The position numbers and the translations under genes were made by a program. This document shows positions 1 through 32,000 of a stretch of 32,000 nt of DNA, piece by piece. Source of the DNA: Candidatus Saccharimonadota bacterium (GTDB lineage: Archaea > Nanohalarchaeota > Nanosalinia > Nanosalinales > Nanosalinaceae); NCBI GenBank assembly GCA_001761425.1, contig CP012986.1, positions 1 through 32,000 of the forward strand, given 5' to 3'. The notes under the pieces were generated by a model that did no database searches, was not told the origin of the DNA, and saw only the letters and a program-made list of their open reading frames with translations. Position 1 is the first letter of the stretch. Each line of letters starts with the position of its first letter.

Positions 1-1376
1 GGCTAACCTGCCCTGTGGATGGAGATAACCTCGCTAACGTGAGGCTAATATCCAATAGCAGATGATTGCTGGAAAGCGTCGTCTGTGAAATGTTCCGACG
101 CCATAGGATGGAGTCGCGGCTGATTAGGTTGTTGGTGAGGTAACGGCTCACCAAGCCAGTAATCAGTAGCAGCCGTGAGAGCGGGAGCTGTCAGTTGGCT
201 TCTGAGACAAGAAGCCAGACCCTACGGGGTGCAGCAGGCACGAAACCTTCACAATGCACGAGAGTGCGATGGGGGGACTCCGAGTGTAATCTTCCCACAA
301 GGAAGGTTACTTTTCTGCACTGTAAGGAGGTGCCGGAACAAGGGGTGGGCAACACTGCTGCCAGCCGCCGCGGTAATAGCAGGACCCCAAGTGGTAGTCG
401 TTATTATTGGGCTTAAAGTGTTCGTAGCCTGCCGTGCAAGTCCGCTGTGAAATCCACGCGCTCAACGTGTGGGCGTGCAGCGGATACTGTATGGCTAGGG
501 ACCGGACGGCGTTGAGGCTATTCCCGGGGTAGGAGTGAAATCCTAAAATCCTGGGAGGAGCACCTGTGGCGAAAGCGCTCAACGAGTACGGATCCGACGG
601 TGAGGAACGAAAGCCAGGGGAGCAAAGCGGATTAGATACCCGCGTAGTCCTGGCCGTTAACAATGTCCGTTTGATGTCGGCTAACCTCCGAGGTTAGCCG
701 GTGCCGAAGTGAAAACGTTAAACGGACCGCCTGGGAAGTACGGTCGCAAGGCTGAAACTTAAAGGAATTGACGGGGGAGCACCACAACCGGTGGAGACTG
801 CGGTTTAATTAGATCCAACGCAGAGTACCCTACCAGAGCCGACAGCAGAATGACGGTCAGCTTGAAGAGCTTACCTGACGCGCTGAGAGGAGCTGCATGG
901 CCGCCGTCAGCTCGTGCTGTGAAGTGTCCGGTTAAGTCCGGTAACGAGCGAGACCCGCACTCTATGTTGCCAAGGATTCCTTCGGGAATTCTGCACTCGT
1001 AGAGGACCGCTGGCGATAAGCCAGGGGAAGGAGCGGGCCACGGTAGGTCAGTATGGCCCGAATGCTCTGGGATACACGCGGTCTACAATGGCCGGAACAA
1101 AGAGATGCAACCCCGAGGAGGGGAAGCTAACCTCCTAAACCCGGTCCTAATTCGAATCGAGGACTGCAACTCGTTCTCGTGAAGGCGAAATCGGTAGTAG
1201 TCGCTGGTCATCATCTAGCGGCGAATATGTCCCTGCTCCTTGTACACACTGCCTGTCAAGTCACCCGAGTCAGGTTCAGACGAGGGCCTCTTTATAGAGG
1301 AACAAGTCTGAGCTTGGCAAGGGGGGCTAAGTCATAACAAGGTAGCCGTTGGGGAACCATCGGCTGGATCACCTCC
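1..1376 (+). rRNA. rrs: 16S (SSU) rRNA, archaeal type; about the first 100 nt are cut off by the window edge
   Basis: Universal SSU blocks are present: CAGCCGCCGCGGTAA at 362-376, GGATTAGATACCC at 629-641, and the GTACACAC..GTCA decoding-centre block at 1242-1258. The 3' end GGATCACCTCC (anti-Shine-Dalgarno) ends at 1376. Confidence 0.96.
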
Positions 1377-1524
1377 AAAACAAACCACGCTTCCACGGAA
1401 AATTGAAACCCCGGGAAGCAACAATTCATCTCTCCTACCTTATCACTTCATTTTCAAAACATTTTCTCGAAGAAAAGAATCTGCTACTTAACCCATTGAA
1501 AGGCCTTCTATACGCTTCCAAAGC

Positions 1525-1550
1525 TTTTTGGAGGCCTTTAGAGCTTTTTT
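1525..1550 (+). terminator. Candidate oligo-T terminator downstream of 16S
   Basis: T5 at 1525-1529 and T6 at 1545-1550 lie 150-175 nt after the mature 16S 3' end. Archaeal RNA polymerase terminates at oligo-T runs. Confidence 0.3.
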
Positions 1551-1607
1551 GGCTTCGGTTGTTTGTCCTGGGTAATTGTCTTAAATGGAGAACAGTATTA
1601 GTGTTGT

Positions 1608-2051
1608 ATGGTGTTTAAGGGTCAGACCTCTATCGAGTATCTGAGTACTTATGGCTGGATGCTGGTAGTTTTGGCGATTGCGACAGGTATTTTCTATACT
1701 AATTATGTTCCTGAGCAGCAGTGTAAGAACAGAGTTACTTCAGATATGCCTGGGGACTTGGCGATAACTGACTTGGCTACTGATCCTCAGGGAGATCTTG
1801 CCCTGCTGATAAGAAATGAGGGTGCGAGAAGTGTGACGGTTCAGGAGATCACTGCTTCCGCAGGCTCCAACATGACTACAGTTATCGCTAACACGACTAT
1901 TCCTACGACTGACAGCAGTGACTTCCGTCTAAACGGAACCGGTTTCTCCGAGGACTGTACGGAAGTGGATCTGGAAGTAATCTATGACTCACCGCAGCTC
2001 GGTACTTTATCGGACAGGGCAACTGTCGAAGGAAAGTTCACAGTACAGTGA
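1608..2051 (+). CDS. Type IV pilin-like protein (archaeal class III signal peptide, DUF361-like)
   Basis: The N-terminus MVFKG|QTSIEYLSTYGWMLVVLAIATGIFY has a short basic leader, a KG/Q prepilin-peptidase site, the QxSxEY motif and a hydrophobic helix. The rest is Thr/Ser/Asn-rich. Confidence 0.8.
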   Translation: MVFKGQTSIEYLSTYGWMLVVLAIATGIFYTNYVPEQQCKNRVTSDMPGDLAITDLATDPQGDLALLIRNEGARSVTVQEITASAGSNMTTVIANTTIPTTDSSDFRLNGTGFSEDCTEVDLEVIYDSPQLGTLSDRATVEGKFTVQ

Positions 2052-2058
2052 GGAAAAA

Positions 2059-2565
2059 ATGAGGTTGTGGAAGAAGGAACTCGATGAAAGTACCGAGAAA
2101 AGATTCGAGCAGTACATGGATTCAGGAGGAGCAAGAGATCTTGCCAACATTATCCTGAAGAAAAACGCGGCGATGGGATTACTTCTATCGGCGATATTCA
2201 GTATAGGATTTTACCAGAAAGGAACAATCCCTCTCATAGGGCCTTTCTCAATACTTTCCGTGACCCAGTTTACAGTTGGCATGACAGCTTTTCTCACAGT
2301 TATCATGACTGTGTTAGACCTCGTTACCAGCACTGTAACTTACCTGATCCTATCAAGGCGGAGTGAAATCGAGTTCAGGACAGTGATAGCAGCAAGCGTG
2401 ATCGGTCTCAACCTCACCAGAAGGATGTCCGAGTCCCATCTCCTAGTCAATAAAGAAATTCAACTGGAAAAATCTAGAATCGGAAAGGCCTTTCTTCTGG
2501 GGAAACTCATACCTATTCTCGGCCCCATAATGGCCCTTTTACCAATCGTGATTTACTTCCACTGA
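2059..2565 (+). CDS. Hypothetical integral membrane protein
   Basis: ATG at 2059 follows the pilin stop and a GAGG-like RBS. It encodes a 168-aa protein with about 4 hydrophobic helices. The tracked ORF start at 1984 would overlap the pilin gene by 68 nt. A T5 run follows immediately after the stop. Confidence 0.6.
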   Translation: MRLWKKELDESTEKRFEQYMDSGGARDLANIILKKNAAMGLLLSAIFSIGFYQKGTIPLIGPFSILSVTQFTVGMTAFLTVIMTVLDLVTSTVTYLILSRRSEIEFRTVIAASVIGLNLTRRMSESHLLVNKEIQLEKSRIGKAFLLGKLIPILGPIMALLPIVIYFH

Positions 2566-2592
2566 ATTTTTCCCCGGAGAAACAGGAATTGA

Positions 2593-2743
2593 TGGACCCT
2601 CAGGGATTTGAACCCTGGGCCTTCCCCTGACTTGGAATCGGCTCCGCCTCTCCGTAAGCCATTCTGTGAATGGCTTTTTGCGTATGGATCGAGCGTAACC
2701 ACTCCTGCAAGGGGGACGTTCTGCCAGACTGAACTAAGGGCCC
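2593..2743 (-). tRNA. tRNA-Ala(UGC) with a ~77-nt intron at the canonical 37/38 position (intron about 2629-2705)
   Basis: Hand-folded cloverleaf on the minus strand. Acceptor GGGCCCT/AGGGTCC with G3:U70 and A73; D arm GTTC-AGTCTGGCA-GAAC; anticodon stem TCCCC/GGGGA interrupted after CTTGCA; T arm CAGGG-TTCAAAT-CCCTG. No CCA is encoded. Confidence 0.85.
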
Positions 2744-30762: not shown

Positions 30763-30816
30763 CGGTAGAAGTTTGTTGTGATTAAAATGTTATAATGTTC
30801 TCTGGTGTACATGTTT

Positions 30817-31158
30817 CTAGTTCTGTTTTGTTACTTTCTGCAGTGTGTATGGGAAGTATGTGAGGCCTGTCATGCCTAGTGGGTAGAGTATTCGGGCTAA
30901 TGTGGCTGCTGTGTTGTTTTCTGTTGCCATGCCGTAGATTTCGAGTGTGAAGATGAGGACGAGGATTAGGCTTGATGCTGCGAGTGTTTTGAAGGCCTTG
31001 AGTGCCTGGTCTTTGAGGAAGAATTTTGCTATGGCTGTTTCTCTGTCTTTTTCCATGTTTTTGACGATTCTGTAGTAGAAGATGGTCATGCAGAGATAGA
31101 TTGTTCCTCCTATTATCCCTAGTATTATGAATCCTGCGTTTACTGTGGCTTGTTCCAT
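30817..31158 (-). CDS. Small 3-TM membrane protein, type B, copy 2
   Basis: Paralogue of 27595-27924 (FFLK..KAFK motif). It starts 2 nt after the stop of 31160-31480. Confidence 0.7.
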   Translation of the reverse strand: MEQATVNAGFIILGIIGGTIYLCMTIFYYRIVKNMEKDRETAIAKFFLKDQALKAFKTLAASSLILVLIFTLEIYGMATENNTAATLARILYPLGMTGLTYFPYTLQKVTKQN

Positions 31159-31159
31159 T

Positions 31160-31480
31160 TTAGAATCGCCTCCACCATCTTGCCATTACTGTGATTGTTA
31201 CTGTTCCCTGGATTACTGTTACTGTTCTTCCTATCAGTATTCCTGTTTCTCTGAATCCCATAAACATTCCTGTGCCGAGTATGAGAAGGCCTAGGGCCTG
31301 TATTGCGTGGGCGTATGTCAGGGCCCTAAATTCTCTGTATGTTTTGTCTGTTTGAAGCCTCATCTTTGTCATGAATGTTTTACCTGATTCCTCGAGGCCT
31401 CTGTATATGAGAAGTGCTACTGTCCCTGCTACGGCTGTGACCGATGCCATCGATACTAGGAGCAGGTGGTATCCTTCCAT
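31160..31480 (-). CDS. Small 3-TM membrane protein, type A, copy 2
   Basis: Paralogue of 27921-28244 (TKMRL, LGTG and C-terminal RWW motifs). Confidence 0.7.
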   Translation of the reverse strand: MEGYHLLLVSMASVTAVAGTVALLIYRGLEESGKTFMTKMRLQTDKTYREFRALTYAHAIQALGLLILGTGMFMGFRETGILIGRTVTVIQGTVTITVMARWWRRF

Positions 31481-31550
31481 GAGATCATTTTTGGTTTCTG
31501 GAGTTATAACAGTTAAAAAAAGAAGAACAGAGACGAGTAGCTTCCTTCAG

Positions 31551-31736
31551 CTATGCCTGTTTCTCTGAGTAAGCTGTGAACGCCGATGAGAAAAAGCCCG
31601 CGAACGCGACTGCGTAAAGCGCCCATACCAGGTCATCAGTCGGGATTAACGTGCTTACAGCGTACGTTGCTATCACCGAGATGAACAGGGAAATGACAGC
31701 ATGTATCAGAACATCCTTTGCAACATCTTCGTCCAT
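31551..31736 (-). CDS. Small 2-TM membrane protein (61 aa)
   Basis: An ATG ORF with two hydrophobic helices. An AAATATAAG TATA-like box lies about 30 nt upstream, consistent with a leaderless-style transcript. Confidence 0.45.
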   Translation of the reverse strand: MDEDVAKDVLIHAVISLFISVIATYAVSTLIPTDDLVWALYAVAFAGFFSSAFTAYSEKQA

Positions 31737-31941
31737 GAAAAAGTTTTACAAAAAACTTAACTTATATTTTTCCCAACTGACTCTTTTTCTAGCTTTCTAC
31801 ATAAGGCCTGTCCAGGTTTCCTGTACCAGGGATTTTCTTCTGACATTTTCAAAAAGTTTCCCGGATGTAGTATCTGTGGTTCAAGGCCTGTCTGAAGGTG
31901 TTGAAAAAGGGGGTTGAGGCCTTGGAGTAGGAAATGGGGGT

Positions 31942-32000
31942 TCAGTAGTTTTTGAGTTCTGTTTCGAACTCGTCTAGGTCTTTCTGTAGCTGTTCGATGG
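31942..32000 (-). CDS. 3' end of a further coiled-coil-type ORF running off the window (partial)
   Basis: The minus strand reads ..IEQLQKDLDEFETELKNY-stop (TGA at 31942-31944). The composition resembles 29914-30762. Only 19 codons are visible. Confidence 0.3.
   Translation of the reverse strand, partial: IEQLQKDLDEFETELKNY

Follow-up and report, generated by a model that had tools for sequence, protein, structure and literature searches.

A hyper-abundant AGGCCT palindrome in part of the Nanohaloarchaeota resembles the highly iterated palindromes of cyanobacteria

Introduction

Hyper-abundant short palindromes are a 30-year-old puzzle that has been studied almost only in cyanobacteria. Here we describe the hexamer AGGCCT, which occurs 121 times (exact count) in a 32,000-nt window of Nanohaloarchaea archaeon SG9 ("Ca. 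Nanopetramus"; contig CP012986.1, positions 1 to 32,000), where "the window" is the whole stretch of DNA that was analysed. In cyanobacteria, the highly iterated palindrome (HIP) HIP1 reads GCGATCGC, and alternate HIPs are GGCGCC (Calothrix PCC 7103), GGGATCCC (Synechococcus JA-3-3Ab) and CAGGCCTG (Synechococcus PCC 6312) (PMC4390886, PMC5861425). Each alternate HIP is found together with a cognate methyltransferase (PMC4390886), the HIP methyltransferase is usually orphan and specific for the word or its core, and one-nucleotide variants of HIPs are biased to the outer positions (Elhai 2015, PMC4390886). The positional conservation of HIP1 has been read as selection (PMC5861425), and its long-range density is periodic at 10–90 kb (Xu et al. 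2018, PMC5861425).

AGGCCT resembles these elements in being a short G+C-rich palindrome in 15-fold or greater excess, in occurring in every reading frame and between genes without being a mobile repeat, in being present or absent by lineage, and in having positions that are conserved beyond background. A preliminary description of the window, made from its letters alone, named HIP1 as the closest precedent, which was the right class of element, although nearer precedents exist: the alternate HIP GGCGCC is also a hexamer, with an observed/expected ratio (O/E) of ~15, and the octamer CAGGCCTG has AGGCCT as its core (PMC4390886, PMC5861425). Unlike the HIPs, AGGCCT has an archaeal (DPANN) and not a cyanobacterial host, it is a bare hexamer whose flanking bases are only weakly biased (3 of the 121 copies lie within CAGGCCTG), and short-range repulsion between its copies is documented. 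At ~4 per kb it is also several-fold denser than HIP1, which reaches about one per gene in the richest cyanobacteria (PMC5861425). A literature search returned no report of AGGCCT enrichment in archaea, in agreement with the preliminary description, which was aware of no archaeal equivalent.

Three further systems share features with AGGCCT. The DNA uptake sequences (DUS) of Neisseria and the uptake signal sequences (USS) of Pasteurellaceae are likewise over-represented genome-wide, lie in tolerant coding positions, are spaced more evenly than random and are missing from foreign DNA. However, they are non-palindromic words of 9–12 bp at ~1 per kb, often paired as terminators, whereas AGGCCT is a 6-bp palindrome at ~4 per kb. 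In Escherichia coli, the Dcm/Vsr word CCWGG is, like AGGCCT, a palindrome that is enriched instead of avoided, in that case a methylation target enriched by repair bias; its enrichment is modest and CTWGG is strongly depleted, whereas AGGCCT is in 15-fold excess and its corresponding neighbours are undepleted. AGGCCT-specific cytosine methylation by the methyltransferase of a restriction–modification (R-M) system is known in bacteria: the StuI-type system of Alcanivorax borkumensis SK2 has the same recognition word and methylates AgGCcT, although over-representation is not reported there for the 1674 copies in the SK2 genome (PMC12128166).

Results

The word is expected 6.9 times in the window from base composition and 8.1 times under a first-order Markov model, and dinucleotide shuffles (n = 100) contain 8.4 ± 3.2 copies (maximum 16). 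The excess is thus 15–17-fold over chance. Among all 4096 hexamers AGGCCT is the most deviant under Markov orders 1–3 (z = 39.6, 24.5 and 11.5; orders 2 and 3 expect 17.8 and 44.4 copies), and the runners-up are its own overlaps AAGGCC and GGCCTT. At order 4, the maximal order, 100 copies are expected (O/E 1.21) and the word is no outlier. This test is uninformative because it is built from the pentamers AGGCC (136 in the window) and GGCCT (139), 121 of each (~88%) lying inside AGGCCT, so that the signal is absorbed. It was replaced by orders 1–3, the dinucleotide shuffles and a synonymous-codon shuffle that keeps, within each gene, every protein and the codon usage of the gene; this last yields 14.9 ± 3.3 copies (maximum 26) against 87 observed in the coding sequences (CDS) of the window. 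A palindrome in ~15-fold or greater excess that is the top outlier of its length is what characterizes a HIP, and AGGCCT is one on both counts. An active restriction partner is expected to lead to avoidance of its recognition word; AGGCCT is 15-fold over-represented.

The preliminary description had counted about 120 copies, only one short of the true number, against about 6 expected. The strong excess stands, while its size was overstated at ~20-fold, and the assumed composition (A = T ~0.28, G = C ~0.22) was off: the window has A 0.254, C 0.228, G 0.244 and T 0.273, a somewhat richer GC content of 47.3%. The maximal-order Markov comparison that it proposed formally fails at order 4, whereas AGGCCT is the top hexamer at orders 1–3. 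Every non-coding position that it listed is a real site.

Copies are dispersed through genes and the spaces between them. Within genes they are divided 16/30/46 over the codon phases and 46/46 over the strands, and 25 sites lie outside called genes, at no constant distance from the starts or ends of genes. Density is 4.1 per kb in CDS, 5.0 per kb in intergenic DNA and 0.85 per kb in rRNA and tRNA genes; the 23S gene has 4 copies against ~12 expected at CDS density. Occurrence in all frames, on both strands and between genes, unexplained by codon or peptide usage, is a further HIP property that AGGCCT displays. The flanks of the 121 copies show only a weak preference (position –1: A57 G31 C20 T13; position +1: T53 C32 G28 A8), T being avoided at –1 and A at +1, and composition is near background beyond ±3. 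GGCC occurs 189 times, 121 times within AGGCCT and only 68 times over the other 15 NGGCCN contexts combined. The whole hexamer is therefore the specific unit, not GGCC alone. The largest repeat family that carries AGGCCT consists of four copies of 22 nt, and the copies are not hitch-hiking on longer dispersed repeats or a mobile element.

In all of this the preliminary description read the window well: the spread over three codon phases and both strands, the similar non-coding density, the (A>G)AGGCCT(T>C) skew and the scarcity of GGCC in other contexts are borne out, the collapse into longer repeat families that it considered does not occur, and its argument that codon or amino-acid usage cannot explain the word is upheld by the synonymous-codon shuffle and by an intergenic density equal to or above that of CDS. 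Its picture of a word found across the whole window is right in extent and wrong in uniformity, given that the 16S gene, 21693–23127 and an S-layer open reading frame (ORF) at 24494–26899 are free of it.

In coding DNA, AGGCCT encodes Arg-Pro, x-Gly-Leu or [KEQ]-Ala-[FLSYCW], and where the peptide permits the word it is usually written. Arg-Pro is written AGG-CCT in 19 of 25 cases (3.2 expected) and Gly-Leu as GGC-CTN in 65 of 93 (22 expected), and in SG9, for which 41,480 bp of contiguous DNA were analysed (the window and an extension via the ORF at 31160–31480), 116 of 166 synonymous opportunities for the word are used (~70%). Four other enriched genomes use 65–84% of theirs, against ~5–10% in non-enriched relatives. 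The peptides themselves are shifted: compatible contexts occur at ~4 per kb in enriched and ~2 per kb in non-enriched genomes (twofold), and in SG9 Gly-Leu is 1.39-fold and Arg-Pro 2.03-fold over-represented, with Gly-Val and Gly-Ile depleted. Codon alignments contain site-creating replacements (EPL to EAL, GEF to GGL, SEL to SGL, KP to RP), the first of them at a proline that 13 of 16 other aligned sequences keep. Parallel replacement is seen in SG9 and in a distant enriched relative (L007): EDF became EGL or GGL, and at alignment position 116 of the arginase-family gene D/N-F to G-L created the word. From these alignments, many copies appear to have arisen through amino-acid replacement.

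Relatives were sampled as loci around argS (here L with a number), taking one genome per species together with contigs that carry argS homologues. The excess is 14.9-fold in SG9, 17–24-fold in its 97%-identical strains, 16.9-fold in L058, 18.7-fold in L003 (NHA29), 13.2-fold in L004, 18.7-fold in L061 (Nanosalina sp. VS9-1, complete genome CP180230) and 11.4-fold in L007. There is no enrichment (0–2.2-fold) in Nanohalobium constans LC1Nh, in the Nanohalococcus occultus genome (CP180231), in ~15 other nanohaloarchaeal loci or in any bacterial control locus. The enrichment recurs in independent assemblies from different projects, one of them a complete genome. Hence it is a lineage property, which some nanohaloarchaeal clades have and close relatives lack; repeating the analysis in related genomes, as the preliminary description advised, gave an excess of 11-fold or more in several lineages and none in others. 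In a neighbour-joining tree of arginyl-tRNA synthetase (ArgRS), VS9-1 branches below a clade that unites the enriched SG9 and NHA29 with the non-enriched Nanohalobium group, and L007 stands apart beside the non-enriched L009. This placement points to a gain combined with loss of the enrichment, or to its transfer. At least six SG9-like strains are represented in public halite metagenomes.

Two contigs of metagenome-assembled genomes are mosaics. In L001 (7315–13258) and L059 (3024–6840) a block around argS has ~3.5 AGGCCT per kb and the flanking core genes almost none; in L001, 22 of 27 copies lie in the 6 kb around argS, with none in the agmatinase gene and one in the deoxyhypusine synthase gene, and its ArgRS is unusually near that of SG9 (85%), unlike its remaining proteins. 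We read both as word-rich DNA imported into word-poor genomes, which suggests that nanohaloarchaeal lineages have exchanged the argS region, or else chimeric assembly.

The same sites recur in different enriched genomes, for example at argS alignment positions 105, 881 and 1304 of the codon alignments. Where the two or three amino acids that a site encodes are conserved, sites of SG9 persist in 18 of 19 cases in L058, 10 of 10 in VS9-1, 10 of 11 in L003 and 8 of 8 in L004. The four pairs together keep 46 of 48, against 27–37% for other hexamers (p 2e-7 to 5e-5), and retention against non-enriched genomes is at or below background. Sites thus appear to keep their positions down to a nucleotide identity of ~75% between genomes, and conservation of position beyond background between related genomes is again a property of HIPs.

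Copies also repel each other at short range. In five enriched genomes, with 359 spacings in all, 39 gaps shorter than 25 bp would be expected and only 8 occur; spacings of 50–150 bp are in excess. Within the window the most even stretch (6400–21700) departs from random placement (P = 0.0002) and has 3 pairs closer than 40 bp against 13.8 expected; it was picked after the gaps had been seen, and the pooled multi-genome tests are the safer evidence. Synonymous opportunities tell the same story: in SG9, 53 are used and 35 unused with another AGGCCT within 100 bp, against 63 and 13 farther away (p = 0.002), and in the four other enriched genomes pooled, opportunities near a copy are again used less (odds ratio 0.375, p = 0.002). 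The force is weaker when another copy lies within ~100 bp.

Coordinates are collected in Table 1. The argS product is 100% identical to AQV86_00050 of SG9, which originates from Atacama halite (bioRxiv 10.1101/029934); the preliminary description was correct in taking the organism for a host-dependent archaeon, the Nanohaloarchaeota being a host-dependent phylum (PMC6642349). The RNA genes of the window are an archaeal 16S, a 23S and four tRNAs, and a Pfam scan of 20 of its ORFs found no DNA enzyme among them.

Table 1 Features of the SG9 window that carry or lack AGGCCT
Feature	Coordinates	Strand	Remarks
Dispersed array of 121 AGGCCT	1..32000	strandless palindrome	Mean spacing 253 bp, median 167 bp
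16S rRNA, 5'-truncated by the window	1..1377	+	Rfam; 0 AGGCCT
23S rRNA	3341..6290	+	Rfam; 4 AGGCCT (4154, 4192, 5823, 6081)
Densest, most even AGGCCT stretch	6400..21700	.	77 sites, mean spacing 200 bp, coefficient of variation 0.64
Arginase-family (agmatinase-like) gene	8289..9056	+	3 AGGCCT
argS (arginyl-tRNA synthetase)	10588..12252	+	6 AGGCCT, all three phases (RP, KAL, EGL, others)
Deoxyhypusine synthase gene	16386..17417	+	4 AGGCCT
Paralogous S-layer-family ORF, 1213 aa	20672..24313	-	12 AGGCCT at both ends; middle 21693-23127 site-free
S-layer-family ORF, 801 aa	24494..26899	-	Pfam PF05124; 0 AGGCCT, 2 GGCC
Intergenic AGGCCT pair (example)	29633..29652	.	Copies at 29633 and 29647

Three of the argS sites are common to L001, L003 and L004. 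The mechanically called ORF begins with TTG at 10588 (554 aa); the database protein has 545 aa, so the start is probably the ATG at 10615, with a copy of the word ~45 bp upstream at 10564. Three of the deoxyhypusine synthase sites recur at matching alignment positions in L003, and L001 shares one of them, that at position 248. An ORF at 9049–10437 (462 aa, no Pfam hit), which separates the agmatinase-like gene from argS, holds 10 copies, 7.2 per kb, the highest density among the longer genes. At its position Nanosalina VS9-1 has a 472-aa trehalase/GH-like gene, and in N. constans the flanking genes are adjacent.

The two tandem S-layer paralogues (20672–26899) have only the C-terminal ~190 residues in common, at 42% identity. 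The smaller is a word-free island in which 0 of 4 synonymous opportunities are used, and its 772-aa allele in the 97%-identical strains also lacks AGGCCT. Both paralogues differ between strains that are 97% identical elsewhere (L048 14584–20321; 801 versus 772 aa and 1213 versus 1199 aa). As the smaller gene is poor in GGCC and free of AGGCCT in both alleles, it looks like a hypervariable surface-protein island, and it was perhaps recently imported.

Several smaller observations concern the rRNA region and the relatives. The gap of ~2 kb between 16S and 23S (1378–3340) holds two overlapping ORFs without Pfam hits (1608–2051 and 1984–2565) and, on the opposite strand, a tRNA-like match of 151 nt (2593–2743) that ARAGORN does not call and that is presumably an intron-containing tRNA. 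A 274-aa ORF with a weak LAGLIDADG_3 match is present in the close strain L048 (5958–6782) and also in L053, with a faint match in a 248-aa ORF of L058. None is called at the SG9 counterpart (L049, region 5969–6589), which makes this a presence/absence polymorphism of a gene that resembles homing endonucleases. The non-enriched N. constans LC1Nh locus (L050, 1–2780) encodes, ~7–10 kb upstream of argS, a type I restriction R subunit and a GmrSD-family nuclease; nucleases of this family depend on modified DNA. Viral contigs were scanned for triplets of AGGCCT spaced 95–125 bp apart; all hits were due to chance or to tandem or telomere-like repeats, and none of the contigs had tblastx similarity to nanohaloarchaeal loci. 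One of them, the IMG/VR UViG contig L154, has 157 copies of TTAGGG in 11.9 kb and looks like eukaryotic telomeric or subtelomeric DNA, not a virus.

Discussion

Judged by its sequence properties, AGGCCT shares four sequence-level features with HIPs (excess, frame independence, independence from repeats and positional conservation) and would be an archaeal counterpart of cyanobacterial HIP1, new in belonging to the Archaea, in being denser and in its short-range repulsion. A lineage-specific force that acts on the whole hexamer at the level of DNA creates and keeps the sites, near to saturation; in rRNA, strong purifying selection counteracts it, and the constrained RNA genes are poor in the word. 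The preliminary suggestion that something HIP1-like acts on the DNA word itself is therefore supported by the shuffle, the intergenic density, the absence of carrier repeats, the lineage specificity and the positional conservation.

As to the cause, we give about an even chance to the view that AGGCCT is a HIP-type element of part of the Nanohaloarchaeota that is a methyltransferase target and owes its abundance to repair or selection. The word would be recognized by a DNA methyltransferase with the specificity of StuI that is particular to the lineage and probably orphan; we propose it by analogy with cyanobacteria, in which each HIP is accompanied by a methyltransferase that matches it. A bias in methylation-linked repair or in gene conversion would create the sites, and the same bias, weak selection in favour of a marked site every 100–200 bp, or the two together would preserve them. 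Gain, loss or transfer of the methyltransferase would give the patchy distribution among lineages. The methylome of N. occultus SVXNc has GDGCHC only (PMC11001535), and the N. occultus genome compared here (CP180231) is one without the enrichment. A more specific version is a good deal more tentative: AGGCCT may be functionally equivalent to HIP1, the first such case in archaea, and form a methylated self-mark that a mobile orphan methyltransferase would set every 100–200 bp and a repair or recombination system would read.

Several results weigh against the methyltransferase proposal. Regular-expression searches of ORFs of at least 120 aa in seven enriched loci (~150 kb) found no C5 or N4/N6 methyltransferase motif and no Vsr motif, so the link to methylation rests on analogy. 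All nine pairs of one-mismatch neighbours were tabulated in enriched and non-enriched relatives, and they show no clean ratchet signature, being only ~20% depleted overall, most of them mildly and no single transition neighbour strongly: the C-to-T products AGGCTT/AAGCCT are undepleted (O/E 1.26, against 1.29 in non-enriched relatives), AGGTCT/AGACCT stand at 0.77 against 1.07, and GGGCCT/AGGCCC are the only enriched neighbours (1.81 against 0.72), with the other outer variants at 0.60–0.77. Sites still turn over between 97%-identical strains, with 66 shared by SG9 and one such strain and 9 private (3 and 6; changes of mixed type, unpolarised), and the difference in divergence is modest (2.2% in site columns, 3.5% elsewhere). 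Positional conservation could partly reflect parallel saturation instead of retention, although 46 of 48 exceeds the ~70% that independent saturation would give. Finally, the ArgRS tree is not a species tree and argS seems to have been exchanged (L001, L059), which makes the history of gain and loss uncertain.

Part of the evidence also fits an array of binding sites for a chromosomal protein, kept by selection that is independent of methylation and serving nucleoid organization or the loading of replication or repair, with about one site per 100–200 bp favoured and diminishing returns for near copies. The under-dispersed spacing with its deficit of close pairs, the reduced use of opportunities that lie close to a copy, a result that other genomes repeat, and the positional conservation, which is the argument of Xu et al. 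for selection on HIP1 (PMC5861425), all speak for such an array. However, the use of ~70% of synonymous opportunities goes far beyond what coverage requires, several thousand sites per 1.1-Mb genome leave each with a tiny selective value in a host-dependent organism, and no candidate protein is known, so that we consider it unlikely, if worth taking seriously. An uptake or recombination signal that spreads by molecular drive and brings the cell no advantage, a model put forward for USS and DUS, would explain why the whole word is read, why it accumulates with amino-acid changes at less constrained coding positions, why its spacing is more even than random and why DNA that looks foreign or hypervariable lacks it; the word-rich blocks inside word-poor genomes (L001, L059) point to exchange between lineages. 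Yet a palindromic hexamer offers little specificity compared with the 9–12-bp non-palindromic USS and DUS, its density is several times that of known uptake signals, and close inverted pairs, of the kind seen in DUS/USS terminators, are depleted, as the shortest spacings show; the copies stand at no set distance from gene ends. Nor is a competence system known for the Nanohaloarchaeota (the terms 'competence' and 'DNA uptake' do not occur in PMC6642349), and a drive of this kind seems to us improbable.

Pure very-short-patch repair, in which a C5-methyltransferase and a Vsr-like endonuclease convert T:G mismatches in near-cognate words to AGGCCT, was among the three roles raised in the preliminary description, beside a target of a StuI-like methyltransferase and a self-DNA mark or uptake/recombination signal. 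Such repair enriches palindromic methylation targets in enterobacteria, and the model of Elhai for HIP1 is a relative of the idea (PMC4390886). Its signature is not found here: the neighbours that it should consume, AGGCTT/AAGCCT and AGGTCT/AGACCT, are undepleted, it protects the methylated C only while all six positions including the specific outer A and T are maintained, the 15-fold excess is far above the CCWGG effect, and the ~150 kb of enriched DNA contain no Vsr motif. We judge this mechanism on its own very improbable. The view that AGGCCT is a by-product of codon or amino-acid usage, of a family of dispersed repeats or of faulty assembly draws on the order-4 O/E of only 1.21, which is conditioned on the word's own pentamers. 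This explanation was rejected, and we give it next to no credence, given the codon-preserving shuffle, an intergenic density above that of coding DNA, the absence of longer repeats that carry the copies, and the same excess in independent assemblies including a complete genome.

For the organisms, the pattern means that a force at the level of DNA reshapes the proteins of a reduced symbiont genome, to the point of replacing conserved residues. As an independent instance in DPANN genomes of ~1 Mb, AGGCCT offers a simpler comparative system for finding the responsible enzyme, and given that enriched and non-enriched lineages are close relatives, with at least one enriched complete genome, it could separate selection from biased repair. 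The density of the word marks native versus imported DNA (the S-layer island; the L001 and L059 blocks) and is a strong binning signature for these genomes in metagenomes. We predict that StuI will cut these genomes to fragments of ~250 bp unless the sites are methylated. If AGGCCT is indeed a methylated self-mark, it is one strong enough to recode ~70% of the codon contexts that admit it and to make compatible peptides twice as frequent. Gained and lost repeatedly within one phylum, such a mark would open the long-unsolved HIP mechanism to tests by presence/absence genomics and a VS9-1 methylome, and in host-attached, DNA-exchanging nano-archaea it could serve strand or self/non-self discrimination.

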